NCBI RefSeq assembly: GCF_036323395.1
Contig: NZ_AP028907.1
Coordinates: 30,001-62,000 of the forward strand
Direction of reading: 5' to 3'
Source: Pyrodictium abyssi
Lineage (GTDB): Archaea; Thermoproteota; Thermoprotei_A; Sulfolobales; Pyrodictiaceae
Length of the DNA stretch: 32,000 bases
Positions within the stretch are counted from its first letter, which is position 1. The number at the start of each line of letters is the position of its first letter. Below, piece after piece: positions 3,153 to 23,468 of this stretch. The translations under genes and the position numbers were made by a program. Under the pieces are notes generated by a model. It was given only the letters and a program-made list of their open reading frames with translations, made no database searches and was not told the origin of the DNA.

Positions 3153-3831
3153 CCCCAGCAGCCCAGAGGAGCCGCCGACGCCAGCAGCCTGGGCCCGAGA
3201 CGAAGAACGTAGCAGCTAGGAGGATCCACGAAGGGCTTCGAGGGGTCGAGTAGCCCTCCCAGACGCAGCACAACCAAGCTCGCATCGAAAAGGGTCAACG
3301 TAGACAACACGACAAGCGGGTAGAGCCCGCCACCCGCACGAGAAGAGCCGTGAACGAACCCGGCCGCCCCTGCACGCGCCTAGGACGCACCAACCGCCAC
3401 CACTCCATAGAAGTGCTAGACCATATAGTGGGCCCGAAGTGTCCACCACAACAAAGCACGCAGACAAGCCACAGGCAGGCACTGCAGCAGAGAACCAAGC
3501 ACCCTCCCGTAACCCAGATTACACCAGCACCCGGCAACAGAGACAAACCCGGGGCACCACAGAGTCCCCACACGAAGCACCAAGAGGAGCCCCCGCAGGG
3601 AGGCTGCAGGCCACATGGCCCTCGCCGGGAGGCCCAAGCGGGGTAGATACGTATAGTACACGGGCTACGCCGCGCCATAGCCATGGCCCTAGCAGTGCTC
3701 TTCACCTACAAAGCTCTGAAGGAAGCAGCCACAGACCCCATCTGGAGCCTCATATACATCCTCATAAGCCTAGAATACCTCACAGAAACACCAACACTCT
3801 CAACAAAGAAGCAATAAACAGGGAGACAACA

Positions 3832-4980
3832 CTACTCTATCAGCCGGAACTTCTTCAACGCCTCAGCAACGTCATGGGGCTGCGTATCCCACTCGTTACG
3901 CCACGGATCAAACATCTCAACCGGAGTAGGAACAGCCACAGACCCCAGCACAGTGTTCTCCGAGTACACCTTACCGCTACAGTACTCCTCGATAAACCCG
4001 GTCAACAACGGACGTATCTCATTATTCACAAGGAAAGTCGCTATAACACGCTCCTCCCCTATAAACAGCTGTGGCGCCGACAACGTGGAGGCAGCAAGCA
4101 CATACAGCTGCTCCGCGCAATCCCCGCCAGCCACAACCATCGATACACCCACATCACCACGACCACCGTTATGGAGCACAGCACCTAGCCAAGTACGGCC
4201 AATATATCCTTTTTCGCTCAAACGGTCATAGTGGCTCTTCATGTAGCGAAGCCTAAGAGCAGCATCCGGAGGCAACTTCCTAGTTATGTCCTCTACACGC
4301 GCTCTAGCTAGCAAATTAACGCTACGCAAGTCAATGTTTCTTAAGAGCGGATAGTATTCCACCATTGTAACCACTATGACGTCTACAAACCTCATACGAG
4401 AATTCAACGGGGTAAACCTAGCAACATTTTCAAATGTATCGGCATGCATACTATAGGTTTCCCGAATATCATCTAGGCTTCTAGCAATTCTCCCGACACA
4501 ATTATACACAGGAACAGCGTAACCTACGTCAACAAAAGATATTCTATCCCCTAGACTTTCCTTGAACCCGTCCACGAGTTCAGGAACAAACCTCTTAGGA
4601 ACCTTATATGTTAGCAGCATCTTGCCCCCGAAGAGCCTGGAAACAGACACCAGGTAGCGTACCAGAGGCAGTTCGAGCTGGAACCACGCGTTCATTGAGC
4701 GCTCCTGGCGTATAGCGTTGAACTTCCTTGCAAGCTCCTCAGCGCCATGCACCATTGCTATAACTGACTGTAGGCCTATAGCCCTGTGGTCCACGAGAGC
4801 CATCGTTGACCTGCGGTGTTTCTTTATGTTTTCTAGCTCTATTTTCCGTACACGGCGTATGATTGCGCGCAGGTGCTGGTCTGTTATGCCCATTCTGTCT
4901 GCCATCTCGACTGCGCTAACCCTGAAATCGTAGCACGATAGTAGTGCTGCCACTATGTCTAGGTCTTTGTGTATCTTCAA
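3832..4980 (-). CDS. Putative transcriptional regulator with an N-terminal HTH and two Lrp/AsnC-like modules
   Basis: A clean 382-aa ORF. It has an HTH (VEMADRMGITDQHLRAIIRRVRK). A second module reads YMKSHYDRLSEKGYIGRTWLGAVLHNGGRGDVGVSMVVAGG, which follows the Lrp pattern L.e.G.I.g..a.l.....g....a.v.v. The first module reads MALVDHRAIGLQSVIAMVHG. GC is clearly lower than in neighbouring genes. Confidence 0.7.
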   Translation of the reverse strand: MKIHKDLDIVAALLSCYDFRVSAVEMADRMGITDQHLRAIIRRVRKIELENIKKHRRSTMALVDHRAIGLQSVIAMVHGAEELARKFNAIRQERSMNAWFQLELPLVRYLVSVSRLFGGKMLLTYKVPKRFVPELVDGFKESLGDRISFVDVGYAVPVYNCVGRIARSLDDIRETYSMHADTFENVARFTPLNSRMRFVDVIVVTMVEYYPLLRNIDLRSVNLLARARVEDITRKLPPDAALRLRYMKSHYDRLSEKGYIGRTWLGAVLHNGGRGDVGVSMVVAGGDCAEQLYVLAASTLSAPQLFIGEERVIATFLVNNEIRPLLTGFIEEYCSGKVYSENTVLGSVAVPTPVEMFDPWRNEWDTQPHDVAEALKKFRLIE

Positions 4981-5631: not shown

Positions 5632-5840
5632 AGGCGGGTAGTGTGGTTTAGTCTGAGGTGGCGTGGTTCTCCTGTGGGGAAGGCTCGCTGGGTTTATAAG
5701 CTGGTTTCGCGCGGCTATTTCGGGCATTATGCTCGTCTACGCTATTTATCCTACCGGCTCCCGTGCTGTCCTGTGGGGTGGTCTCATCCGGCTGGTTTTT
5801 GACCCCCTGGGCTGGGGCCGCGTGTCCTGGTGTCCACACG

Positions 5841-7682
5841 GTGGGTTCTACTCAGAAGTTGCCCGGCTGGAGCAAGAGGATACTCTGGGTCGACCTGTCG
5901 CGGGGCGTGTTCAGGGAGTGGCGCTACCCTGGCGAGATGGCGCTTATGTTCCTTGGGGGCCGCGGGTTCGCGGCCAAGATCCTCTGGGACTTCCTCGAGC
6001 CGGGGGTTGACCCCCTGGGGCCCCGTAACCTGTTCGTGGCGGCTGTGGGGCCTCTTACCGGGCTCCCTGGGCCGAATACGGGCAAGCTCGTTGTTGCGGC
6101 TAAGAGCCCGCTCACCGGGGGCTACGGCGACGGCAACATAGGCTCGTGGGCTGCGGTGCAGATGAGGGCTGCTGGCTGGGACGCGATAGTCCTGGAGGGC
6201 GCCTCGGAGAAGCCCGTGGTGCTCGTCGTGGAGGACGACCGTGCCTGGCTCGAGCCGGCGGAGGACCTCTGGGGGCTCGACGCGTTCCGGGCCTACGACA
6301 AGCTAGTGGAGCGGTATGGCCGCAGCGCGGGGATACTGCTGATAGGCCCTGCCGGCGAGAACATGGTGCGCTACGCCACCGTGGTCTCCATGAAGGGCCG
6401 CGCCGGCGGCAGGCCCGGCATGGGCGCGGTGCTTGGGAGCAAGCGCGTCAAGGCCATCGTGGTGCGTGGGACGAAGCGTCCGGAGCTGTTCGACCCCGAG
6501 GCGGTTATGCGGGCTGCGGTGGAGGCGATAAGGGAGGTCAAGGCTAGCCCTAGCTTCGGGTTCTGGATGCGCCAGGGCACAATGTTCACCGTGGAGTGGG
6601 CGCAGGAGGCTAGCGTGCTCCCCGCCTACAACTTCCGCGAGGGCGTGTTCGAGGGCTACGAGGGGCTCAGCGGCAGCTACATGGAGCGGATAGAGGTGGA
6701 CCTGCGTAGCTGCCCCCTCTGCGTGATACCCTGCGGCCACGTGATAGAGGACGTGGAGGGCCGCCGCGTCGAGCTAGACTACGAGAACGTAGCCATGCTC
6801 GGCAGCAACCTCGGCGTGTCGAGGCTGGAGGAGGCGGGGCTCTTGAACAGGCTAGCAGACCTCTACGGCCTGGACACTATCAGCCTCGGCGGCACCCTGG
6901 GATACGCCCTAGAGGCCGCTGAGAGGGGCAAGCTGGAGCTAGACGCGGGCTGGGGTGAGGCCCGGAAGATAGCAGGGCTCGTGGAGGATATCGCTCTACG
7001 CCGTGGCGTCGGGGACCTGCTGGCGGAGGGCAGCGCCAGGGTATCTAGAAAGTTGGGCGAGACCTGGTACGCTATGCACGTCAAGGGCCTCGAGGTGAGC
7101 GCCTACGACTGCCACGCAGCGCCCGGCATGGCGCTCGCCTTCGCCACGAGCCCCATAGGGGCGCACCACAAGGACGCGTGGATGATCGGCTGGGAGATAC
7201 AGCACGGCCGCACAGAGTACAGCCGCGAGAAGGTGCGGAAGCTCATATGGATGCAGAGGTTCCGCGGCGGCCTATTCGAGGCAGCCGTAGCCTGCCGCTT
7301 CCCAGTGGTCGAGACCGGCCTCGGCCTAGAGCACTACCTGCGCCTCCTCCAGGCGGCGACAGGGCAGAGCCTCAGCCTAGACGACATCTACACCATAGCG
7401 GACAGGATATACGCCCTCATACGGATGATATGGGTCCGGGAACACGGCGGCTGGAGCACGGACATGGACATGCCCCCAGAGCGCTGGTTCCGCGAACCCC
7501 TCACCAAGGGCCCACTAAAGGGCGCACGGCTAGACCCCGACCGGTTCCGGGACATGCTCCAGATGTACTACGAGGAGCGCGGCTGGGCCCCCAACGGAGT
7601 CCCACGCCCAGACACGCTACACAGGCTAGGCCTACACGACGCCGCCAACCTAGCAGAGAGACACATGACCACCGCGAGCTAG
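5841..7682 (+). CDS. aor: Tungsten-containing aldehyde:ferredoxin oxidoreductase family protein (start GTG 5841 or TTG 5859)
   Basis: Full-length similarity to AOR: ILWVDLS...LGGRGFAAKILWD, GPLTG...KSPLTGGYGDGNIG, GPAGENMVRYA, GRAGGRPGMGAVLGSKRVKAIVV, the CPLCVIPCG cluster motif, LDTISLGGTLGYALE, and LP.RW/ YYEERGW at the C-terminus. Confidence 0.95.
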   Translation: MGSTQKLPGWSKRILWVDLSRGVFREWRYPGEMALMFLGGRGFAAKILWDFLEPGVDPLGPRNLFVAAVGPLTGLPGPNTGKLVVAAKSPLTGGYGDGNIGSWAAVQMRAAGWDAIVLEGASEKPVVLVVEDDRAWLEPAEDLWGLDAFRAYDKLVERYGRSAGILLIGPAGENMVRYATVVSMKGRAGGRPGMGAVLGSKRVKAIVVRGTKRPELFDPEAVMRAAVEAIREVKASPSFGFWMRQGTMFTVEWAQEASVLPAYNFREGVFEGYEGLSGSYMERIEVDLRSCPLCVIPCGHVIEDVEGRRVELDYENVAMLGSNLGVSRLEEAGLLNRLADLYGLDTISLGGTLGYALEAAERGKLELDAGWGEARKIAGLVEDIALRRGVGDLLAEGSARVSRKLGETWYAMHVKGLEVSAYDCHAAPGMALAFATSPIGAHHKDAWMIGWEIQHGRTEYSREKVRKLIWMQRFRGGLFEAAVACRFPVVETGLGLEHYLRLLQAATGQSLSLDDIYTIADRIYALIRMIWVREHGGWSTDMDMPPERWFREPLTKGPLKGARLDPDRFRDMLQMYYEERGWAPNGVPRPDTLHRLGLHDAANLAERHMTTAS

Positions 7683-7761
7683 TATAAAACGCAAAAACCC
7701 TCCGCCTTCCGCTTTTATACCCAACGCTTCTCGGGAGACCAGAATCCCGCGTAACAAATTA

Positions 7762-7768: not shown

Positions 7769-7825
7769 CACCCACACAGCACACTACACACGACCAAAAC
7801 TCACATCTAGAAGGGTGTGTTGGCT

Positions 7826-8362
7826 ATGAGGCCTACGGCTCTGGCTCTGGCTGGCATCGTGGCCTCGGCTGCCGCCCTCGCCCTGCTAGCTGGCTTCGCC
7901 ACTACCCAGAGCCCGCTCAACAGCTTCTACGCCACCGGCACAGCAGAGGCAGTGCAAGAGCCAATAGATGTTGTGAGCCAGCTGAACACTAACATAGACC
8001 CTGCTGCTGGCGCACAGGGCAGCAAGGATATGGGCAGCATAAAGATATACAATAGGACTGACGTGAACGTAGTAAAGCTGAAGATAACCATAGCCAATGC
8101 TGCCCAGCTAAGGCCCTACTTCGACTACCTACAGCTAGTAATAAACAGCACAGCTAACAGCAACGTCCCAGAGATCAAAGCCGTGCTAAGCCTCAAGAAG
8201 CCCAGCGCAGTCATAATACTAGACAACGAGGACTTCGCTGGCAGCGACAGTGGTGGCGACTATGCACAGCTACAAGTCAAGGCCTACTACGAGGCCAGGG
8301 AGGGCATGCTATTCGACAGCCTACCAGTGATACTCAACTTCCAGGTACTAAGCGTCAGCTAA
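7826..8362 (+). CDS. CanA-like extracellular tubule (cannula) subunit, paralog 1, with N-terminal signal peptide
   Basis: ATG at 7826 with a GGGTG Shine-Dalgarno-like element upstream. Signal peptide MRPTALALAGIVASAAALALLAGFA is followed by TTQSPLNSFYATGTA..EPIDV, KLKITIANAAQLRPYFDYLQL and YYEAREGMLFDSLPVILNFQVLSVS. These match my recollection of Pyrodictium abyssi CanA. It is paralogous to 13459..13998. Confidence 0.8.
   Translation: MRPTALALAGIVASAAALALLAGFATTQSPLNSFYATGTAEAVQEPIDVVSQLNTNIDPAAGAQGSKDMGSIKIYNRTDVNVVKLKITIANAAQLRPYFDYLQLVINSTANSNVPEIKAVLSLKKPSAVIILDNEDFAGSDSGGDYAQLQVKAYYEAREGMLFDSLPVILNFQVLSVS
8282..8362. repeat. Left arm of a perfect 81-nt inverted repeat (3' end of cannula-like gene 1)
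   Basis: gcctactacgaggccagggagggcatgctattcgacagcctaccagtgatactcaacttccaggtactaagcgtcagctaa is identical to the reverse complement of 13459-13539. Confidence 0.95.
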
Positions 8363-8398
8363 AGCCTACAATACTCCAGATAAGCCTACGTCAAGTCC

Positions 8399-8406
8399 TC
8401 TTTTTA
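8399..8406 (+). terminator. T-run terminator candidate (CTTTTTAC) after cannula-like gene 1
   Basis: A T5 run lies 37 nt after the stop. The same CTTTTTAC octamer follows the paralog and the peroxiredoxin gene. Confidence 0.4.
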
Positions 8407-8549
8407 CTTCCTCCTTCTAGGTCTCTCATTCAACCTTTAGCGAATCATTGCATGGGTCCTTTTGCCCTACCTTCTAGTTGGTGTCGCATACAAACGGTAT
8501 AACGGTATACCTTGACTGCACTGTCTCTCAGGGCCCTGGTGCAGTGGGT

Positions 8550-9458
8550 ATGCCGAAAGAGCTGCCCAGGCTGCTGGAGGATGCTGTAGAGGTTCTCCGG
8601 AGGCATGGCCCGGTAGTCCGGCTGGGCGCTGGTAGTGTGCTTGTTGCCGGTGATACGCATGGCTATCCCGAGGTATCCCGTTGGGTGCTGGGGCTGGCTG
8701 ACGAGCTAGGTGTAGATGCTGTAGTGTTTCTCGGGGACTATGTTGACCGCGGCCCTCGTGGTGTTGAGAACCTGTCTCTGCTGGTTGAGAGGCTGCTGGA
8801 GGAGCCTGGCCGTGTTATGCTCCTCCGGGGCAACCATGAGTCGCCGTCGATGAACCTATACTACGGGTTCCGCGGCGAGTTCGCCGCAAAGGTTGGCCTC
8901 GAGCACCTCGACGTCCTCCATGGGTTCTACTCGTGTCTACCCTACGCGGCTCTGATGGGACGCGTGCTCCTCGTGCACGGGGGTGTACCGTGCCGCCTGT
9001 GCCGGGGCGGGCCCGAGGAGCCCCTGAGGCTGGGGGAGATCGAGGAGAGGCTTCGGGGGCTCTTCTGCCGCCGCTGGCTGCTCGAGTGGGGTGATTCCGT
9101 GGCTGTGCAGCTTCTCTGGAACGACCCGCGGGGGGAGCTTGACTGGTTTGCGCCTAGCCTGCGCGGCCCGGGCATCTACTACTATGGCCGCTTGGCGTGG
9201 AGGAGGTTTCTCGAAGCGAACGGGCTGGTGCTGCTCGTGAGGGCGCATGAGGCTGTTGACGCGCACCAGGTGTGGGCGAGCAGCGGGAGACCGGTTCATG
9301 GCCTCGAGCACGGCTATGCTGTTGGCATGGAGGAGCTAGGGGGCTCGGTGGTTACTGTGTTCTCTAGCCTCTACCACGGTGCTGGCGCCGGGGCGCTTCT
9401 CCTCAGGGAGGGGGAGGTGGTGTTCCTGCGCTATCCCGGCGGGGCGCAGGGGCTTTAG
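8550..9458 (+). CDS. PPP-family serine/threonine protein phosphatase (metallophosphoesterase, PP1-arch-like)
   Basis: Motifs GDTHG, GDYVDRG and GNHE appear in canonical order and spacing, followed by VHGG. The ATG at 8550 is inside track ORF 8478..9458. Confidence 0.9.
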   Translation: MPKELPRLLEDAVEVLRRHGPVVRLGAGSVLVAGDTHGYPEVSRWVLGLADELGVDAVVFLGDYVDRGPRGVENLSLLVERLLEEPGRVMLLRGNHESPSMNLYYGFRGEFAAKVGLEHLDVLHGFYSCLPYAALMGRVLLVHGGVPCRLCRGGPEEPLRLGEIEERLRGLFCRRWLLEWGDSVAVQLLWNDPRGELDWFAPSLRGPGIYYYGRLAWRRFLEANGLVLLVRAHEAVDAHQVWASSGRPVHGLEHGYAVGMEELGGSVVTVFSSLYHGAGAGALLLREGEVVFLRYPGGAQGL

Positions 9459-9816
9459 GGGCTAGAACCGGGTCCTCCGCCCCTACTTCGACCCCCTACG
9501 CGGGGGCATCCGGGGCTTCACCGGGTCCCCTGCATAGAGTCGGGGACTGTCACATTAATCTTTGTTTGCGGCGTGCCTGGGGTGGCTACGGCGTGGCTTG
9601 TCTTGGGGCTCGTATGCTTCGCCGACGAGTCTGGGTCGCCGGTATGCTGCACTGTCATGTGTATGTCTATCCTCTGCTTCGAGCGGAGGCCGGGCGTAGC
9701 CAGCCATATGCACGGCTACGAGGCCTGGACCTCTGTACGCCCGGCTGCTCGGCTGGCACCGGGGCGAGCTGAAGTACCGTGGCGCTAGGCGCGCAGCAGA
9801 GAGGAGGGGGATAGGG

Positions 9817-10157
9817 GTGGAGGGGGTCCTGGCACGCATCCTCGCAGCAACCGTGCTTGCCGCGGGTGCTGCGTCCACGTGGAGGAGGCCCCTAGAGCTA
9901 AGGCCGGGGCTCGTAGAGGCCGTAGCGGGGCTCGTGCCCGGAGGCTCCACGGTGTTCCTTGACAACGAGGCTCTGCCCGGGGGCCTGGCGGGGCTAGGAG
10001 GCTCTCGCGGAGGCTCGGTGTGTGGCTGCGGTTCGCGGATAGCGCTAGGACTCCGGGCGTCCAGTTGGCTGATATCCTGGCCGGCTACCTGAGGGAGGAA
10101 GGCGTTATGGGGTGCCGCGTCCTCCTGGATAGAGTAGGGCGGGCTAGACTTGCATAG
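9817..10157 (+). pseudogene. Possible frameshifted small gene: N-terminal part in the frame of ORF 9817..10092, C-terminal part in frame 9963..10157
   Basis: Frame 9963-10157 reads ...RLGVWLRFADSARTPGVQLADILAGYLREEGVMGCRVLLDRVGRARLA*. Its TAG (10155-10157) overlaps the TTG start (10150) of the next gene in a typical coupled arrangement. The upstream frame looks coding by codon style up to the c3g5 run at 9976-9983. Alternatively, only a 45-aa GTG-initiated peptide is real. Confidence 0.3.
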
Positions 10158-11244
10158 GCTCTACGAGGAGGCGTGCCAGGGGCTGCGTCTCTGCCCCCGC
10201 CCCCTCCCCCCGGGGCTCCGGGGCGCAGAGCCGTCTATACTGGCCCGTGTCGACCCGCTGCTTGCCTCCTCCATAACCGGCGGCGAGCCAGCGCTCTACT
10301 ACGAGGGCCTCTGGCTGCTCCAGGGGCTGCTGAGGAGGCTACGCGGGAGGGAATGCCCCTACTGCGGGAGGCCAGCCCTCCACGCCGCTGGTGCATGGAG
10401 TATCTCTGTCGAAGGCGTGGAGGGCAAAGCCATTCTGGAGGGCCTCGTCCCTCTCTGCGGCTCGTGCCTCCTCACCTATAGGCTCGACGAGGCGTTCTCC
10501 CGTGGGCTCCTCCGGGAGGCTGTCCGGCACCTCGTGGTCGTCAACTGGGTTCCCGAGGACGTGGCTCTTGCCGTTGTGGACCGTGTGCTCGGGGAGTGGA
10601 AGGAGACGCTCCGGGTGAGGCGGTGGAGCATAGAGATGCCTGGCCTCCTGGACTACGGGATGGACCGGGACCATGTAGGGGTGCTGGAGGAGCTGGCCGA
10701 GAGGCTCGTCAACCCGCCCTACCTGGTCGAGGACGAATGGCTCCTCGTCCTCGGCGGGGACGCTGAGGCCCAGCGGGCGCGCGCGGCCGAGGCCCTGGAG
10801 GCCCTCTGCGAGGGGAGGCTGGGGGCAGCCGCCCTGGCCGCCAAGGCGGCCGAGCTGGGGCTTAGCACCGAGCCCAAGAGGATAAAGATGTACGTGGAGT
10901 CGCTAATCGCTAGGGATGTCTGCCGGAAGCCCCTCTACAAGGCGCTAGAGATGCTCGAGGGCGCATGGCTGCTCATGGTCCCCCGGAGGCTCCGCGCCTG
11001 GCTCGTGGTAGCATTGGCGGAGGAGGCTGAGAAGAGCCCCTGGCTACTCCGGCTCGAGACCCCCCTGGGGCCGCGCGAGCCAGCCCCGGTGGCCATCTAC
11101 ACGGCCAGCGTGTTCGACGTGGCTGGCATAGCGGAGGCAGCGCGGAGGCTCCACGAGCTACTCCCAGGGCAGCCCCTGGCGATGGCCTACAAGCCAGGCC
11201 TACCCGGACACCGGCTGGCAAACCACCTACTCTACAGCTACTAG
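10150..11244 (+). CDS. Hypothetical protein with a CxxC...CxxC zinc-ribbon (364 aa, TTG start)
   Basis: A coherent ORF containing CPYCG-x29-CGSC. No family recognised. Other-frame ORFs overlapping it look like GC-driven artefacts. Confidence 0.7.
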   Translation: MHRLYEEACQGLRLCPRPLPPGLRGAEPSILARVDPLLASSITGGEPALYYEGLWLLQGLLRRLRGRECPYCGRPALHAAGAWSISVEGVEGKAILEGLVPLCGSCLLTYRLDEAFSRGLLREAVRHLVVVNWVPEDVALAVVDRVLGEWKETLRVRRWSIEMPGLLDYGMDRDHVGVLEELAERLVNPPYLVEDEWLLVLGGDAEAQRARAAEALEALCEGRLGAAALAAKAAELGLSTEPKRIKMYVESLIARDVCRKPLYKALEMLEGAWLLMVPRRLRAWLVVALAEEAEKSPWLLRLETPLGPREPAPVAIYTASVFDVAGIAEAARRLHELLPGQPLAMAYKPGLPGHRLANHLLYSY

Positions 11245-11316
11245 CTTGCTGGACTACCGCTGCGCCGGGCAAGCCTAATAGCGTCTGAAAGCCGTAGTCG
11301 AGCCTGGTGGCCAGGA

Positions 11317-11577
11317 GTGGACCTGGTGGCAGAAACACGGGTGGGCCGTAAGGGCGCTATCTACATACCTAAGGGCATACTACGCCGGCTGGGTGTCGAG
11401 GAGGGAGACCAGGTTGTTATACGCGTCGAGGACGAGAAGAGAATTACCCTAGAGTTCATCCCCGACCCCTTCCTGCTAGCAGCGAGGCAAAAGCCCTGGG
11501 CCCGGACGAGCGTAGAGGAGTTCGAGAAGGAGAGTGAGGAGGAGCAGCTTGGCTGGACCAGTGAGGGCTCTGCTTGA
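11317..11577 (+). CDS. vapB: AbrB/SpoVT-fold antitoxin (VapB-like)
   Basis: RVGRKGAIYIPKGILRRLGVEEGDQVVIRVEDEKRITLEFI is a classic SpoVT/AbrB swapped-hairpin motif. It has an acidic tail and overlaps the downstream PIN gene. Confidence 0.85.
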   Translation: MDLVAETRVGRKGAIYIPKGILRRLGVEEGDQVVIRVEDEKRITLEFIPDPFLLAARQKPWARTSVEEFEKESEEEQLGWTSEGSA

Positions 11578-12031
11578 CACTAGCTACTTCCTCCCCGTAT
11601 TCGGGGTCGCTGTAGAGGGCCTAGAGCCCAGCGACCTCCTCGCGATAAGGAGGTACGCGCTCCGGGGCAAGCTAGAGCTATACTACGCCGAAGTAATGTG
11701 GCTAGAACTTGTTCCAAAGGTGTACCGGGAAGCGCAACGGAGAGGATACAACGCCGACGCCATAGTAGAGCAGGGAGCCAAGTCTATAATGAAGGCGAGC
11801 TACCTCAAGCGCGCCCTCGTGGACTGGAAGGCGGTCAGGATAGCCTACGAGATGCGGAGACTAGGCCACCGGGACATGATAGACAATATGCTCTACGGTA
11901 TAGCTTCCTCTCAAGGCCTAGTACTAGTGACCATGGATAGAGCGCTTGCCGGCCTCGCCCGGGACAGAGCGGCTGGAGGCGCAAAAATCCTGGACCATAA
12001 CGAGCTGCTGAAAATGCTCCAGGACGGCTAA
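11561..12031 (+). CDS. vapC: PIN-domain ribonuclease toxin (VapC-like), GTG start overlapping vapB by 17 nt
   Basis: ALLDTSYFLP supplies the first acidic residue. AEVMWLELV and HRDMIDNMLYGIASSQGLVLVTMDRAL supply the distal acidic residues. Size and gene order are typical of VapBC. Confidence 0.85.
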   Translation: MRALLDTSYFLPVFGVAVEGLEPSDLLAIRRYALRGKLELYYAEVMWLELVPKVYREAQRRGYNADAIVEQGAKSIMKASYLKRALVDWKAVRIAYEMRRLGHRDMIDNMLYGIASSQGLVLVTMDRALAGLARDRAAGGAKILDHNELLKMLQDG

Positions 12032-12062
12032 AGGCGGCGCCGGAGCCCCCTAGCCCTCCGGG

Positions 12063-13190
12063 TCACCCGCCCCGGAGGAGCCGCTCGTAGCTGCGGCGTA
12101 GCTTCTCGTGGTACCAGTGCACCAAGGTGCTGCGGAACGCTAGCTTCTTGCCTAGTATCAGTACGCCGCGGTCGGGGCCCAGGCCCACGCCCGCCATTGG
12201 CCGACAGCTGGTTATCAGGGGCTTGTAGGGCTGCTCGCTGCGGCCCCGAAGCCGCGCAGCTATGTTCTCGACCGCGCGGCTCGCGCTGCGCAGAGCCTCC
12301 CTTGCCATCTTGAGGCTTACGCAGTCGCCCCTCCTGAACGCCATAGCGTCGCCGGCCGCGTAGACGCGGCCCCCGAGCCCCTGGACCCGGAGGTACTCGT
12401 CCACCTGGAAGAAGCCACCCCGTGCCAGCGCCTCCCTGGGGGCCTCAATCCCGGGGCCCCGGAGCCCAGCAGACCAGACCACAACGTCGCCCTCCACCCT
12501 CGTGCCGTCCTTCAGCTCGACGCCGCCCTCGTAGACCCTGGTGACCGGGCGGCCCATCTCGAACCCTGCGCCTAGCTCCTCCAGTATCTCCCGGGTCAGC
12601 TTTGAGGCCTTCCGGTTGCCGAGGAGCTGGAGAGGCTCCTCAAGCATATCCACGAGCGTGACCCGCAGCTCCCTGCCCAGCCGCCGGGCTAGCCACAGCG
12701 CCTCCGCCGCAACCTCGACACCCACAAAACCGGCGCCGACGACCACCATGCTCCTTATCCGGCCCTGCTCAATCATCTCGCCCAGGCGCCACGCCTCCCC
12801 GGCACTGTAGACAGTCACGCTGAGTTCCTCGGCCCCAGGCACACCGTAGAACGCGGGCCGCGCACCGGCAGCCACTACGGCGTAGTCGAACTCTAGCACC
12901 TCGCTGTCCTCGAGCCTCATCCGCCCCGGCTCCACAGCAACAACGCGCCTGGCCACCAGCTCCACGCCGAGCCTCCTCGCGTAGCCCTCAACGCCCCACT
13001 CTACGTCCTCGGGCCGGTAGCGGCGGCTAACCAGCGCTGGCAGCAGGGGGAGAAACACCAGCTTGGAGTTCGCAGTCACCCAGATGCACTCGTTCCCGTC
13101 ACAGAGGCCGAGCCTGTGGAGCCGGCGTACAGCCTCTACCCCGGCAAACCCGCTACCAACAACAACTATCCGGGCCACAGCGGCCAGCAC
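12063..13190 (-). CDS. FAD-dependent pyridine nucleotide-disulfide oxidoreductase, type II NADH dehydrogenase-like (start uncertain: 13190, 13178 or 13262)
   Basis: Two dinucleotide-binding motifs are present (IVVVGSGFAGVE and MVVVGAGFVGVEVAAE), followed by YAAGDAMAF near the C-terminal third. Confidence 0.85.
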   Translation of the reverse strand: MLAAVARIVVVGSGFAGVEAVRRLHRLGLCDGNECIWVTANSKLVFLPLLPALVSRRYRPEDVEWGVEGYARRLGVELVARRVVAVEPGRMRLEDSEVLEFDYAVVAAGARPAFYGVPGAEELSVTVYSAGEAWRLGEMIEQGRIRSMVVVGAGFVGVEVAAEALWLARRLGRELRVTLVDMLEEPLQLLGNRKASKLTREILEELGAGFEMGRPVTRVYEGGVELKDGTRVEGDVVVWSAGLRGPGIEAPREALARGGFFQVDEYLRVQGLGGRVYAAGDAMAFRRGDCVSLKMAREALRSASRAVENIAARLRGRSEQPYKPLITSCRPMAGVGLGPDRGVLILGKKLAFRSTLVHWYHEKLRRSYERLLRGG

Positions 13191-13414
13191 CCAGGAGCCC
13201 AGGTAGCCTACCCCAAGCCAAAAGAATGCTACCACACCATGCAGCCACAAAGCCTCTAACAAAACGTAGCCACTACAGCCAGCCGGTAGACGACTGGCAC
13301 TACGAAGTAGACATGGATACTTAAGAAGGTGGCGGACCGGGACTGGAGCGTGCCGAGCAGAAGCAAGGACACGCTCAAAGCGTGGAGACCCTGGGGCTAG
13401 GATATGGAATTGAA

Positions 13415-13422
13415 GTAAAAAG
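13415..13422 (-). terminator. T-run terminator candidate (CTTTTTAC on the minus strand) after cannula-like gene 2
   Basis: The plus strand reads gtaaaaag, about 37-44 nt downstream of the stop at 13459-13461. Confidence 0.4.
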
Positions 13423-13458
13423 GTGTATGGTTGGGGCTAGGGGCTATGGGTGTGGGTG

Positions 13459-13539
13459 TTAGCTGACGCTTAGTACCTGGAAGTTGAGTATCACTGGTAG
13501 GCTGTCGAATAGCATGCCCTCCCTGGCCTCGTAGTAGGC
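13459..13539. repeat. Right arm of a perfect 81-nt inverted repeat (3' end of cannula-like gene 2)
   Basis: Its reverse complement is identical to 8282-8362. Confidence 0.95.
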
Positions 13540-13998
13540 TGTCACAGTTATGTTGGCCTGGTTATCGCTGCCTAGGTCCTCGTCGTCTAGTATTATGACT
13601 GCGCTGGGCTTCTCGAGGCTCAACACAGCCTTGATCTCGTCTACCTCGCCGCTAGTTGTCGCCTTGGACTCTATTACTAGCTGTAAGTAGTCGAAGTATG
13701 GCCTTAGCTGGGCAGCATTGGCTAGAGTCACCTTCAGCTTTACAGTGTCGACCTGGGCGTTGTTGGGCTCTGTTATCTTCACGTAGCCCATGTATATCTT
13801 GCCCTGTGCGCCAGCGGCGGGAGCTATACTGTTGACCGTGAGGTGGCTTTCTACGTCTATTGGCTCGCTTACCGCCTGAGCCTCGCCGGTGGCGTAGAAG
13901 CTGCTTAGCGGGCTCTGGGTAGTGGCGAAGCCAGCTAGCAGGGCGAGAGCGGCAGCCGAGGCCACGATGCCAGCCAGAGCCAGGGTCGTATACCTCAT
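13459..13998 (-). CDS. CanA-like extracellular tubule (cannula) subunit, paralog 2, with N-terminal signal peptide
   Basis: MRYTTLALAGIVASAAALALLAGFATTQSPLSSFYATGEAQAVSEPIDVESHL..., KLKVTLANAAQLRPYFDYLQLVI and YYEAREGMLFDSLPVILNFQVLSVS. A strong AGGTGA Shine-Dalgarno element lies 8 nt before the ATG. Confidence 0.85.
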   Translation of the reverse strand: MRYTTLALAGIVASAAALALLAGFATTQSPLSSFYATGEAQAVSEPIDVESHLTVNSIAPAAGAQGKIYMGYVKITEPNNAQVDTVKLKVTLANAAQLRPYFDYLQLVIESKATTSGEVDEIKAVLSLEKPSAVIILDDEDLGSDNQANITVTAYYEAREGMLFDSLPVILNFQVLSVS

Positions 13999-14050
13999 GG
14001 CTTGTTCACCTTAGGCACGGGCTCTGGTCGTGTATAGCGAGGCCCTAGGA

Positions 14051-14060
14051 TGTAATAAAT
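14051..14060 (-). promoter_or_regulatory. TATA-like element (tatttattac on minus) about 60 nt upstream of cannula-like gene 2; a second TTTTATAC lies at 14099-14106 (minus)
   Basis: A/T-rich elements occupy the same two positions (-60 and -110) as upstream of paralog 1. Confidence 0.3.
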
Positions 14061-14196
14061 ACTGTACACTTCGGGGCAAACGAGATAATGATGCGTAAAG
14101 TATAAAACTTGTGGGAGTGTGATGGGAGGCGCCTTTGTTGTGGTGTTCCGCTTCATGTACTGGATGGCTTAGTGGTTTCCGTACTATGGCTAGCTG

Positions 14197-14844
14197 TTAA
14201 CTATGGTGGGCTAGTGCCTCTTGTACGAATGGGTTGGCTTGTTTCTCGCGTGCTAGTGTTGTCTCTGGGCCGTGGCCTGGTAGCACGAGTGTGTCCGGGG
14301 GTAGTAGCGTGTAGAGGCGGCGGAGGCTCTGGAGTAGCTGACTGTAGCTGGAGCCGGGGAAGTCTGTCCGGCCGACACTCCCGGCGAAGAGGAGGTCCCC
14401 GGTGAACACTGTGGAGCCGCCTACGAGTACGAGGGCTGTGTGGCCTGGCGTGTGGCCGGGGGTATGCACTGCCTCTAGCAGGACGTCTCCCACGCGGATA
14501 CGCGCCTGGTCGTGTAGCGGTATGTCCGGCTCTCCCGGGGGTTCTGGGGGCTCTATGCCCCATATCCTGGCGAGCCTTAGGGAGTATTCTAGGGCGGGGC
14601 GGTCGCTGGCGTTGGCTGCGTAGGCTGCGCCGAGCCTGCGGAGACACTCGACCCCGGCGACGTGGTCTATGTGCATGTGCGTGGCTGCTACCACTTCTAC
14701 GCGCTGGCAGCCTGCTTCGCGGAGCCTCTCCTCCGGTATGCACTCGCCCGGGTCTATGACCATGCAGTCGCCGCTGCCCGATACTAGTATGTAGGTGTTG
14801 GTCTCCAGGGGGCCCGTGACCAGCCTCACTATGCGTGGCTTCAC
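14197..14844 (-). CDS. MBL-fold metallo-hydrolase (glyoxalase II / hydroxyacylglutathione hydrolase-like)
   Basis: The HxHxDH motif is present (ATHMHIDHVAG), along with HTPGHTPGH, GDLLF..SVGRTDFPG and LPGHGP. Confidence 0.9.
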   Translation of the reverse strand: MKPRIVRLVTGPLETNTYILVSGSGDCMVIDPGECIPEERLREAGCQRVEVVAATHMHIDHVAGVECLRRLGAAYAANASDRPALEYSLRLARIWGIEPPEPPGEPDIPLHDQARIRVGDVLLEAVHTPGHTPGHTALVLVGGSTVFTGDLLFAGSVGRTDFPGSSYSQLLQSLRRLYTLLPPDTLVLPGHGPETTLAREKQANPFVQEALAHHS

Positions 14845-20772: not shown

Positions 20773-21336
20773 GTGGAGCAGCAGGACCGCCTCATAATCC
20801 TTGTAGCTGGTATGCCCGGCAGCGGTAAGAGCATGCTCTCCAGCGTCGCCCGGGAGATGGGTATCCCGGTCTACGTGATGGGTGACGTGATCCGGGAGGA
20901 GGCCAGGCGCCGGGGCCTGGAGCCGACACCGTCCAACCTCAACATGGTTGCGCGGCTCCTCCGCGAGGAGTACGGCCCAGCCGTTGTCGCAGAGCGGGTA
21001 GCCGAGAAGCTGGCGCGCGACACCAGCCGCGTGGTCCTCGTTGACGGTGTGAGGAGCCTTGTGGAGATCGAGGTCTTCCAGAGACTCGGCCGGGTAGTGA
21101 TAGTCGCTGTGCACGCGTCGCCCCGGACCCGGTTCGAGAGGCTCCGCCGGAGAGGTAGGCCCGGCGACCCGGTGAGCTGGGAGGAGTTCCGGCAGCGCGA
21201 CATGACCGAGCTCGGCTTCAGCCTCGGCAGCGTGATAGCCCTCGCAGACTACATGCTGGTCAACGAGGGCACCGCCGACGAGTTCCGGGAGAACGCCAGG
21301 AGGCTCCTAGAGAGGCTCATAGCGGGCAGGGGCTAG
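20773..21336 (+). CDS. P-loop nucleotide kinase, UPF0200 / dephospho-CoA kinase-like
   Basis: A Walker A motif (VAGMPGSGKS) lies close to the N-terminus. Length is about 187 aa. VDGVRS..E and RL..R.R.GDP are typical of the archaeal UPF0200 family. Confidence 0.8.
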   Translation: MEQQDRLIILVAGMPGSGKSMLSSVAREMGIPVYVMGDVIREEARRRGLEPTPSNLNMVARLLREEYGPAVVAERVAEKLARDTSRVVLVDGVRSLVEIEVFQRLGRVVIVAVHASPRTRFERLRRRGRPGDPVSWEEFRQRDMTELGFSLGSVIALADYMLVNEGTADEFRENARRLLERLIAGRG

Positions 21337-21571
21337 AGCCCCGCAGCCCCTCCCGTTTAGGCCGTGGACCCACGATACCGCGCCGGGGAAATACGGTACA
21401 CCAGATGTATGCGTTACGTATAGATGTGTACTAGCTCATTGGTCTTATAAACCGTCAGCATTGTTTAGGATGCTCGCTGGCCATCACCGGGGCTAAAGGA
21501 GCGCTAGCGCGGAGCGACGCACCCCAGGCTCTTATGGGGGTACAAGTCTAGCCGTAAAAAGCTGGCATGTG

Positions 21572-22958
21572 CTAGTCCATCCGGACTACTTCCCTTACTA
21601 GAGGGGTCACCGCGAGCAAGACAGCATAGAGTGCTGTTGCGAGCAGGAACAGGTAGTGGTAGGCTTCTACTCTCGGTACACGTATGTATACCGGGCTGCC
21701 CGGGAGCGCTATAGCTGTAGAATACATGCGAATACATGCTCATGAGGGTGCCTGCTACTGCGGGTCCCCATGCTGCGCCGAGGTTCCGGAAGAGGCTATT
21801 GAGCCCGGTAGCTATCCCCATAACCCTCCTACCGACACTGAAAACGAGGATGTTTATCAGCGAAACGTTTAGGACACTGATGCCAGTGCTGACTAGGACT
21901 ACTAGGCTGACTATCTTCCATAGGCCTATCGACACTGGGTCATATGATAGGGCTACGAGGCCAATAATGGCTAGTAGTGCTCCGAGCTGGATGAAGGGCT
22001 TTACCCCTATCCTGGTCATCGCCCTCCCGACTAGCGGCGCTATGAATAGCATAGCTATCGCACTAGGTGTCATTAGCAGCCCGGACTCGAGTATCGTCTT
22101 ACTGTAGCCGTATGGAGGCTGCATCTGGAACAGATAGGTTATTGCCTGGTTCATCATCTGTACTGCGAACCCTGCTAGGAATATCCAGAGGTTAGTTATT
22201 AGCACGTTACGCGATGTGAGGAGGCTTACGGGTATCAATGGGTTGTCCGTCTTCAGCTCACGTACTATGAGTAGGGTGAGGCTGGCCAGGGATAGAGCGA
22301 ACATCGCTAGAGTGGAAGGGGCTGTCAAGCCGGTGTCCGGTGCACGGGTGACAGCTACTAGCCCAGACGCTGCGAATAGTGATAGGAGTACTGCTCCTGG
22401 GACGTCGAGTTTCCCCGGGTTGATGTACCTGCTTTCTCTCAGCACTCTAGCCGACAACACGAGCATTAGTATAGCGAATGGCGCCACTGTGTGGTATGTC
22501 AATTCCCACCCATAGTTCTCAGCGATGTAGCTTCCCAGCGGGAGGGCTACGACTATCCCGACTCCGAACATGGCGCTTATCATTCCCTGTACCTGGGGCA
22601 CCATTCTTGGCGGGAACTCTTCCCTGACAATTGTGAATCCTAGCGGGAATATCGCCATCCCTATGCCCTGCAAAGCCCTAGCCAGTAGGAGTGCGTGGAA
22701 TGTTGGCGCGAATCCCGCGAATGTTACGCCGAGCGTGTACACCGCTAGAGCGATTAGGAAGAGCTTTTTCTTGCCATACATGTCTCCAAGCTTCCCCATT
22801 AGGGCTACGCTTATCGTGCCCGTGAGGAGGTAGATGGTGAGAACCCAGCTCACATCGCTCGGTGATACGTGGAACTGGCGCTGGATTGCCGGGAGAGAGG
22901 GTATCAGAACAGCCTCGGTATACATGACGAGTATGGGAAGCGTGACTAGTAGCATCAC
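21572..22958 (-). pseudogene. MFS transporter (DHA2/EmrB-like, 14-TM type) with its C-terminus displaced by a 10-bp tandem duplication
   Basis: MFS motifs are present (GKLGDMYGKKKLF, LLARALQGIG). After ...GTLMSMYS the track ORF runs into Cys/Pro/Ser-rich nonsense. Removing one copy of the duplication at 21720-21739 restores ...STAIALPGSPVYIRVPRVEAYHYLFLLATALYAVLLAVTPLVREVVRMD*, which ends at 21572 and supplies a final TM helix. Confidence 0.85.
21720..21739. repeat. Perfect 10-bp tandem duplication (gaatacatgc x2) inside the MFS gene
   Basis: Read directly: g aatacatgc g aatacatgc at 21720-21729 and 21730-21739. Confidence 0.95.
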
Positions 22959-23445
22959 TGCCTCCCTAGCGTAGCCTAGATCGTACCCCCGGCTCCTCGC
23001 CGCCTTTCATCATTATTCGCCGCGGACGCCGATAGCTCGGCTGTCGATATATAGGCCTTTCGACTACGGCATAACACAGTATTAAATCACGTATTTGAAC
23101 TCCCACAGCTGTACCAGGAGCAGCACATACGTCAGCATTACAGTGGTGGCCCGGGGGGACAGGAGCCTCTCGAGCCTCTGGGGTGCTCTTCTAGTACGGG
23201 CTTGCGCATAGTGTCCTCCTACAGAGCCCCTCTACCGCGTTTCGCTTGGGCCTCTGCTAGCCCGGTACCGGTCCGGTATGAGGCACGACTCTAGCTAGGC
23301 ACGCTAGACCATAGACCCAGGACGGTAGATATAACCTCTCTACATCATGTAGCTTTTCGTCTATCCCGAGAAGGGAAGAGCATTATAGGGATAGATAGAC
23401 ATTGTAATAGGAGGTGTGGATGAACTGTGTCCGTTTGGGGAACTA

Positions 23446-23454
23446 GCAAAAACT
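23446..23454 (-). terminator. T-run terminator candidate downstream of hcp
   Basis: The plus strand reads gcaaaaact, giving TTTTT on the minus strand about 17 nt after the hcp stop (23469-23471). Confidence 0.35.
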
Positions 23455-23468
23455 ATGAGCTAGCCTGG

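Follow-up and report, generated by a model that had tools for sequence, protein, structure and literature searches.

Convergent cannula-subunit genes with near-identical ends border a 5.1-kb segment that is very probably inverted in Pyrodictium abyssi

A 32,000-nucleotide stretch of the genome of Pyrodictium abyssi, a hyperthermophilic archaeon (strain AV2, contig NZ_AP028907.1, positions 30,001 to 62,000; hereafter the window) carries two convergent cannula subunit genes, a canA-like and a canB-like gene (canA and canB below), which face each other across 5.1 kb. Comparisons with related genomes indicate that this 5.1-kb block is very probably inverted relative to its ancestors, and that the near-identical ends of the two genes were likely homogenised by recombination within the genome rather than held alike by protein constraint alone. 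As the best overall explanation we favour, with some reservation, a crossover between the two paralogs that flipped the block, combined with conversion of their ends. The features on which the argument depends are listed here by their positions in the window.

7826-8362, + strand: canA-like cannula subunit gene, 178 amino acids (aa) from ATG, from the open reading frame (ORF) listing; product 100% identical to P. abyssi hypothetical protein P0001
13459-13998, - strand: canB-like cannula subunit gene, 179 aa, from the ORF listing; translation identical to P0008 (P. abyssi)
8282-8362, + strand: 3' arm A, 81 nt with the stop codon, encoding AYYEAREGMLFDSLPVILNFQVLSVS (direct comparison)
13459-13539, - strand: 3' arm B, a perfect inverted copy of arm A (direct comparison)
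7841-7939, + strand: 5' near-identical segment of canA, codons 6-38, 3/99 mismatches against the canB segment
13885-13983, - strand: 5' near-identical segment of canB (direct comparison with the canA segment)
8363-13458: interior, 5,096 bp, inverted with respect to P. delaneyi and an uncultured close relative (blastn and tblastn of L006, L007, L008 and L009)
7969-8536: left breakpoint interval; reverse flank homology stops at 7968 and forward interior homology begins at 8537
13247-14223: right breakpoint interval; interior homology stops at 13246 and reverse flank homology resumes at 14224

The interior holds a phosphatase gene, a 364-aa ORF (X), a vapBC-type pair and an NDH-2-like gene, and it is flanked on the left by an aldehyde:ferredoxin oxidoreductase (AFOR) gene and on the right by a metallo-beta-lactamase-fold (MBL) gene. 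Contigs of relatives were reached via homologs of two interior proteins, namely the product of the 364-aa ORF and the phosphatase. L006 is a JGI contig of 5.6 kb with a 364-aa ORF homolog that is 86% identical, L007 (8.5 kb) and L008 are ENA contigs with a phosphatase homolog that is also 86% identical, and L009 belongs to the genome of a P. delaneyi isolate and was reached via P0028. L006, L007 and L008 are 99.7-100% identical to one another and share 87-93% DNA identity with the window, and they represent one uncultured sister lineage in three assemblies. L007 covers the locus as follows.

L007 1-69: window 14292-14224, reverse; MBL-fold gene
L007 459-3168: window 8537-11244, forward; phosphatase to 364-aa ORF
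L007 3485-4668: window 12063-13246, forward; NDH-2-like gene
L007 4857-4989: window 7968-7836, reverse, 73.5%; can 5' fragment
L007 5128-8472: window 7663-4322, reverse; AFOR and upstream

The resulting gene order in L007 is MBL (+), phosphatase (+), a 181-aa ORF (+), X (+), NDH-2 (-), a can 5' remnant (-) and AFOR (-). The right junction of L006 and the left junction of L008 agree with L007; at the latter end, L007 1-69 and L008 1-146 match 14224-14369 in reverse, within the MBL gene. The order in P. delaneyi is MBL, VWA, phosphatase, X, NDH-2 and AFOR, with 12 flank genes collinear with the window in reverse and three interior genes running forward. In this comparison across related Pyrodictiaceae, to which the initial annotation had pointed, the interior lies in the opposite orientation in both P. 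delaneyi and the sister lineage while both flanks are collinear. We considered whether L006 might be an assembler chimera and rejected this idea, given that its junction holds a decayed, armless can fragment and that the P. delaneyi isolate and a further two assemblies show the same order.

Synonymous divergence (dS) between the window and the sister lineage is 0.27-0.46, versus 0.77 to >1.4 between the window and P. delaneyi. Because the closer sister lineage has the P. delaneyi order, the window order is very probably the derived one, and the flip very probably followed the split from the sister lineage. One can gene, together with its arm, falls within each breakpoint interval. Beside AFOR, the sister lineage carries a decayed can 5' fragment of 133 nt that is ~74% identical, frameshifted, stop-containing and without an arm, and because this fragment is kept there, a can gene occupied the AFOR junction before the flip. 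A search of both sister-lineage junctions for further can remnants, or for homology to the intergenic DNA adjacent to the arms in the window, returned nothing beyond this 133-nt fragment.

The two can genes are alike in an uneven manner. Their 3' arms match at 81/81 nt (8282-8362 against the reverse complement of 13459-13539), with identity breaking off exactly at both ends, and the segment 7841-7939, when set against the reverse complement of 13885-13983, shows three mismatches over 99 nt. A repeat finder reports the same regions as inverted arms at 8282-8370/13451-13539 (89 nt, 97%) and at 7823-7983/13841-14001 (161 nt, 86%), and perfect runs of 35 and 41 nt are found at the 5' ends. Taken over their whole lengths, canA and canB share 78% of their DNA sequence and 74% of their protein sequence. 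The ungapped coding alignment of 525 columns contains 101 differences, and the four indels all fall in the centre. Called mechanically, the canA ORF starts at GTG 7817 and encodes 181 aa. No third can copy was detected in the window by tblastn. Direct comparison thus bears out what the initial annotation had said of this anatomy, including identical 81-nt 3' ends with the stop codon, codons 6-38 differing at 3 of 99 nt, a diverged and indel-bearing centre (four indels, central dS 0.83) and a 5,096-bp interior (8363-13458) bounded directly by the arms.

The identity of the ends extends to synonymous sites. By the Nei-Gojobori method, canA and canB have no synonymous divergence in the 3' arm (dS 0 over 17 synonymous sites) and a dS of 0.10 at the 5' end, compared with 0.83 for the centre. 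Where both genes encode the same amino acid, the codons differ synonymously in 22 of 73 cases in the centre, in 2 of 34 among the first 38 codons and in none of 25 among the last 26. Fisher tests of the N- and C-terminal ends against the centre give p=0.005 and p=0.0007, with boundaries that are post hoc, and at the synonymous rate of the centre 0/25 has a binomial probability of 1.3e-4. When the 101 differences are shuffled, the longest identical run averages 24 nt, and a run as long as 81 nt turns up in ~1/100,000 shuffles.

Cross-species controls were provided by L011, a can paralog from the sister lineage, and by L002. Compared with the 3' arm, L011 has five changes in 81 nt, of which four are synonymous. 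In the 5' segment it departs from the window genes at 10-12 of 99 nt, and these depart from each other at 3 of 99, even though overall DNA identity is similar for canA-canB (78%), canA-L011 (80%) and canB-L011 (81%). A P. occultum gene matches the arm at 68/81 positions, and the 13/81 that differ include synonymous third positions. Because both L011 and P. occultum carry synonymous changes there, the synonymous sites of the arm codons appear free to vary. At the dS of 0.27-0.46 seen between window and sister-lineage orthologs, 4-6 synonymous arm differences would be expected if the arms had been diverging since the split, and the probability of observing none is 0.003-0.02. Among Can proteins, the nearest paralog shifts from segment to segment, which is suggestive only. 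The initial annotation had read this pattern as ongoing gene conversion. The synonymous identity beyond protein constraint holds up (dS 0 versus 0.83, with L011 and P. occultum as controls), whereas the word 'ongoing' does not separate from a crossover footprint: the 81-nt identity could reflect continuing gene conversion, and could equally be a tract converted during the crossover that produced the inversion.

Assignment of both genes to the cannula subunits, as initially annotated, is supported by full-length matches to CanX and CanA of P. abyssi. The canA product aligns with CanX (PDB 9h8b) at E=1.1e-79 (residues 1-178 against 1-174) and with CanA (PDB 7uii) at E=4.5e-47, and the canB product does so at E=1.1e-74 and E~1e-46, respectively. 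Both window proteins are 74-76% identical to CanX. By these alignments, canA and canB are members of the CanX/CanA cannula subunit family, within the TasA superfamily, and a jelly-roll fold is a safe inference for their products given 74-76% identity to a solved member. The donor-strand motif TTQSPL[NS]SFYATG, with its aromatic P1 residue and central Gly, is invariant in canA and canB when these are aligned with CanX, CanA and other paralogs.

Cannulae polymerise by donor-strand complementation, in which the N-terminal strand A is inserted between strands B and K of the neighbouring subunit, and their subunits carry a 25-aa signal peptide ahead of the donor strand (PMC12518558). On the definition used in that work, both window products align with a ~25-aa Sec-type signal peptide followed by an amphipathic N-terminal donor strand. 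The near-identical 5' segment is accordingly mapped, at the level of alignment, to signal-peptide residues 6-25 and the first 13 mature residues, which begin donor strand A. At the other end, EAREGMLFDSLPVILNFQVLSVS aligns to the CanA loop 161-173 plus the terminal strand. This loop contributes an axial Ca2+ site in CanA (PMC12518558), and the 81-nt arm is by the same alignment assigned to the axial Ca2+ loop and the acceptor groove's final strand, K. Mapped onto the description of CanA, the homogenised ends would correspond to the polymerisation interface, and the diverged centre to the rest of the fold with its surface loops.

Strain AV2 has 15 cannula-like genes, 11 in two clusters and four scattered (PMC12518558). 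Protein sequences at both termini hardly vary across all paralogs and in P. occultum, and it has long been known at the protein level that CanA, CanB and CanC have the same 25 residues at the N-terminus (PMC4187195). CanX and CanA (PDB 9h8b, 7uii; Nat Commun 2025, PMC12518558) share with the window genes their family, organism, signal peptide, donor-strand motif and C-terminal strand; the window genes do not encode the major subunit of native cannulae. The terms recombination, gene conversion and duplication each occur 0 times in PMC12518558; inversion was not among the terms searched.

Two further observations concern the wider family. The 131-aa P. abyssi protein P0018 is a truncated or fused member, in which residues 1-40 equal those of the window canA-like protein, ~100 residues are can-like and the tail that follows is unrelated. 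The metagenomic can homologs P0004 (JGI) and P0006 (ENA) are identical in their centre, except for a 3-residue indel and one substitution, and in their C-terminus, and they differ in their first ~45 residues. This mosaic is consistent with an exchange of 5'-end segments.

The non-coding DNA that touches the identical ends of canA and canB is essentially unalignable, apart from short common motifs. The TATA-like and oligo-T motifs among these were located by eye and by regular expression, given that a scan for sigma-70 promoters and intrinsic terminators is inapplicable to archaea.

7713-7720 and 14101-14108 (approximate), both can genes: TTTTATAC, ~110 nt upstream of the can starts
7790-7802 and 14028-14040 (approximate), both can genes: CTAYACACGACCA, ~35 nt upstream of the can starts
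8401-8405, + strand: T5 tract in CTTTTTACTTC, 38 nt past the canA stop and inside the inverted block; candidate archaeal terminator, with function inferred
13417-13421, - strand: CTTTTTACTTC motif, 37 nt past the canB stop; candidate terminator

We regard TTTTATAC and CTAYACACGACCA as candidate promoter or 5'-leader elements of the can family. A similar element, CTACACAACCAAA, precedes the can remnant in L006. Diverged flanks combined with like coding ends are what would be expected if the transcription units are old paralogs and the homogenisation of their coding ends is recent.

Several results weigh against the reading we favour and should be kept in mind. A longest-run permutation restricted to synonymous differences is not significant alone (p=0.08), and because this test is weak we rely on the rate comparisons and the cross-species controls. 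For the Fisher tests, the limits of the regions were picked after the data had been seen. A homoplasy test of the PHI (pairwise homoplasy index) type on six P. abyssi Can proteins with 31 informative sites gives no signal of recombination (p=0.41-0.49). The comparison of P. abyssi can genes at the DNA level comprises canA and canB, two of the 15 paralogs, and does not separate a property of this pair from one of the whole family. The breakpoints are resolved to 568 and 977 nt, and the intergenic DNA adjacent to the arms is unalignable with that of the relatives. No can sequence is present at the junction between MBL and phosphatase in either the sister lineage or P. delaneyi. Finally, the orientation seen in the window rests on one assembly.

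With these points weighed, the most plausible series of events would be as follows. Before the flip, two complete and separately transcribed can genes would have been present in inverted orientation. Gene conversion within the genome would have homogenised their interface-coding ends and left the surface-loop centre old and diverged. A reciprocal homologous crossover between the inverted can copies would then have flipped the block from phosphatase to NDH-2 in the lineage of P. abyssi AV2. This flip is placed after the split from the uncultured sister lineage, which like P. delaneyi keeps the ancestral order, and the can copies would later have been lost from the sister lineage. The can paralogs are, on balance, the substrate we favour for the crossover, which may have fallen anywhere in the genes rather than in the arms in particular.

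A flip of this kind would change neither can coding sequence, because the arms end at the stop codons, and on this point the initial annotation was correct. The can promoters are situated beyond the edges of the block, and the promoters of the interior genes travel with it. The gene map indicates that, in either orientation, a can gene is directly upstream of and co-directional with both the phosphatase group and NDH-2, such that the flip swaps which can gene occupies each position. Because T5 tracts follow both can genes, read-through into the interior genes is doubtful, and the flip would presumably be without phenotype. A Pfam search of the interior genes, the immediate flanks and twelve further large ORFs of the window yielded no integrase, invertase, resolvase or transposase. 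With no recombinase found nearby, the inversion is better viewed as a passive by-product of homologous recombination than as a dedicated switch.

The order of events could also be reversed, with the inversion itself creating the repeat. A single can gene beside AFOR would have been duplicated in inverted orientation, through staggered breaks or template switching, and one of the two centres would later have been overwritten from divergent paralogs. Such a history would account for the lack of can sequence at the MBL-phosphatase junction in either relative and for the presence of a sister-lineage remnant at the AFOR junction only. It would also explain why dS at the ends (0-0.10) is younger than the sister split (0.27-0.46), as expected for a second copy that arose after the split. 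However, the central dS of 0.83 is close to the level of P. abyssi-P. delaneyi orthologs and far older than the split. In addition, the canA centre is closer to P0007 and CanX than to canB, and no near-identical donor is visible, with the best one retrieved reaching 0.88 over 32 columns. The promoters and 3' flanks are strongly diverged and yet paralogous, as judged by TTTTATAC, CTAYACACGACCA and CTTTTTACTTC, which points to an old duplication of the whole unit. For these three reasons we prefer a crossover between pre-existing copies and consider an inversion-made repeat unlikely.

Given that the block has flipped at least once, it is reasonable to ask whether it does so often. In such a reversible system, the arms would recombine frequently today, both orientations would coexist, and expression of the phosphatase group or NDH-2 might be regulated as a result. 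The 81 nt of perfect inverted homology and the 5' runs of 35 and 41 nt are usable substrates of a type known in bacteria (tuf) and inferred for this archaeon, and in either orientation a co-directional can gene lies just upstream of the phosphatase group and of NDH-2. In opposition to this, the three sister-lineage assemblies display a single orientation, though this lineage is without intact arms. The terminator-like T5 tracts after both can genes make transcriptional coupling doubtful, and no recombinase is nearby. We judge a frequent flip-flop to be quite improbable, and it seems equally doubtful that the segment switches orientation in present-day populations. Nothing points to a programmed site-specific switch, since the Pfam search revealed no recombinase gene in or beside the block and no promoter-gene link or coding end would be altered. 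We rejected a composite transposon or mobile island, given that no transposase was found and that the interior occupies the same neighbourhood in P. delaneyi and the sister lineage.

A more ambitious proposal is that the can family uses frequent exchange between copies as a system of variation, with the identical ends acting as recombination handles, the surface-loop cassettes being shuffled and the flip seen here being reversible. We hold this to be a long shot. If it were true, donor strand and acceptor groove would stay matched and all paralogs would remain able to co-polymerise, the flip would exchange the can promoter upstream of the Py-PP1 phosphatase group and NDH-2, and a phase-variation-like mechanism without a recombinase would operate in an archaeon that grows near 100 C.

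Neither of the two remaining explanations appears at all probable. One of them invokes coincidence and constraint, such that purifying selection on the interface together with codon bias produced the like ends, and the breakpoints fell near can genes by chance. The near-invariance of the protein ends across paralogs and P. occultum, the identical N-terminal 25 residues of CanA, CanB and CanC noted above (PMC4187195) and the p=0.08 of the synonymous-only run test all agree with it. Nevertheless, L011 and P. occultum have synonymous changes in these codons, the probability of 0/25 is as low as 1.3e-4, both breakpoint intervals hold a can gene, and one of the junctions has a can remnant in the sister lineage. 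We therefore give this explanation very little weight.

The other holds that the true orientation in AV2 is the ancestral one and that the assembly contains a wrong join through the inverted repeat. Such an error would put the junctions exactly at the arms, and can ends do confuse assemblers, as seen in four short-read contigs from other samples that stop 0-5 nt from a can stop codon. Against this, the source is a single 2.22-Mb contig of the available type-strain genome (NZ_AP028907.1), and the 81-nt repeat is shorter than ordinary reads, such that a closed genome would imply spanning reads. An assembly artefact is, in our view, scarcely credible.

The contigs that end 0-5 nt from a can-like stop do so at 6308/6309 (L001), 10525/10525 (L003), 4271/4271 (L004) and 1024/1029 (L011). 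They come from four different assemblies, namely a Hyperthermus metagenome-assembled genome, two from Logan that carry a P. occultum-type gene, and JGI 3300005753. These contig ends look like the result of assembly graphs that branch where shared 3' coding ends meet unique flanks. This hints that DNA-identical 3' ends among can paralogs are common across the Pyrodictiaceae.

The genes of the interior and of its immediate flanks are as follows.

8550-9458, + strand: PPP-family Ser/Thr protein phosphatase (calcineurin-like), Pfam Metallophos 1.1e-22; the longest ORF starts at TTG 8478
10150-11244, + strand: 364-aa lineage-specific ORF that has CxxC pairs and matches no Pfam family (Pfam scan); adjoins the phosphatase in relatives too
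11317-12031, + strand: vapBC-type toxin-antitoxin pair, with a MazE/AbrB antitoxin at 11317-11577 and a PIN toxin at 11534-12031 (Pfam)
12063-13190, - strand: NDH-2-like pyridine nucleotide-disulphide oxidoreductase, Pfam Pyr_redox_2 2.3e-36; the longest ORF extends to 13262, and orthologs start at the GTG equivalent to 13190
5763-7682, + strand: left flank, AFOR gene, Pfam AFOR_N/AFOR_C; 88-91% DNA identity to L006 and L007, collinear with relatives
14197-14844, - strand: right flank, MBL gene, Pfam Lactamase_B; collinear with relatives

The Py-PP1 operon of P. abyssi strain TAG11 was reportedly described by Mai et al. in 1998, and that work is cited elsewhere as the source for the three cannula glycoproteins. 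On this indirect support, a linkage of phosphatase and cannula genes may already have been seen in that strain. The phosphatase of the window is 94% identical to Py-PP1 of TAG11 (P0025; UniProt O08367), and O08367 is named as Py-PP1, a biochemically characterised archaeal PPP phosphatase (PMC10214084).

L006 and L007 have no vapBC-type pair at the corresponding junction, where 317 nt separate the homolog of the 364-aa ORF from NDH-2, and neither does L009, where the distance is 18 nt. Its absence from both comparison genomes marks the pair as a recent insertion in the lineage of P. abyssi AV2. Between the phosphatase and the 364-aa ORF, the window stretch 9603-10146 is homologous to the 181-aa ORF called in L006, L007 and L008, and in the window it is readable only with two frame changes; the stretch is wholly missing from P. 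delaneyi. It is a possible pseudogene, or else the 181-aa ORF is spurious. Elsewhere in the window, positions 21324-23467, with a major facilitator superfamily (MFS) transporter gene at 21504-22958, have no counterpart in P. delaneyi L009, where the neighbours lie ~70 nt apart.

The P. delaneyi contig has two genes of its own in this neighbourhood, namely a VWA/ArnB_C gene at L009 8797-9972, between MBL and phosphatase, and an FHA and zinc-ribbon gene in the flank at 3422-4075. Neither has a tblastn match in the window, and no remnants of the VWA gene were found. The two genes look like the ArnB and ArnA types that take part in archaellum regulation. P. delaneyi is motile and the cannula-forming Pyrodictium are adapted to a sessile life cycle (PMC12518558), which fits the absence of ArnA/ArnB-type genes from the window.

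The can locus opens no long-standing question. If the preferred reading of paralog crossover and end conversion is correct, its value would be that of a dated example from a hyperthermophilic archaeon, with ancestral and derived orders both known, in which paralog homology homogenises gene ends and also rearranges the chromosome. For the biology of cannulae, the copies would keep the same DNA for the interface of donor strand and acceptor groove, next to an exposed centre that is old and diverged, and this suggests a way for 15 paralogs to stay mutually compatible for co-assembly. There is also a practical warning, in that can-gene ends break short-read assemblies and gene trees of the can family will be mosaic.

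Comparable arrangements are found in several known systems. In bacterial flagellins and in pilE/pilS of Neisseria, conserved ends form the core or interface of the polymer, variation lies in the exposed centre, and recombination among copies shuffles segments. However, pilE/pilS is a programmed, high-frequency system of antigenic variation with silent cassettes, whereas the can pair consists of complete genes with promoters and has no evident donor-recipient direction. In Hin/hix, fimS and the shufflons, a site-specific recombinase is encoded beside short sites, and inversion alters a promoter or a coding end. The can block resembles these in being a segment bounded by inverted repeats that exists in two orientations among genomes, and differs in that there is no recombinase and that coding sequences and promoters are unchanged. 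Long-lasting concerted evolution of prokaryotic paralogs (PMC6053082) and gene conversion of mtrA in methanogens (PMC4632066) share with the can pair a likeness of paralogs within a genome that exceeds their age, but these cases involve whole genes or domains in the same orientation, with no inversion.

The closest parallel is provided by the tuf genes, whose concerted evolution was reportedly linked to chromosomal inversion by Abdulkarim and Hughes in 1996 and by Hughes in 2000. In Salmonella and E. coli, tufA and tufB are inverted paralogs that are kept alike by gene conversion, and recombination between them can invert the intervening DNA, with coding sequences intact and with no recombinase (Paulsson et al. 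2017, PMC5485169). The tuf genes are near-identical over their full length and lie hundreds of kb apart, whereas the can genes are alike at their ends only, with a centre that is ~50% different at synonymous sites, and are separated by 5.1 kb. The can pair also resides in a hyperthermophilic archaeon, and its recombination is inferred from comparison rather than measured as in tuf. Nonetheless, the features by which the tuf system is recognised recur here: the can genes are inverted paralogs on one replicon, their excess identity is younger than speciation, and the segment between them is inverted, with breakpoints at 0.6-1 kb resolution. The can locus is another case of a class of mechanism that is well known from bacteria.

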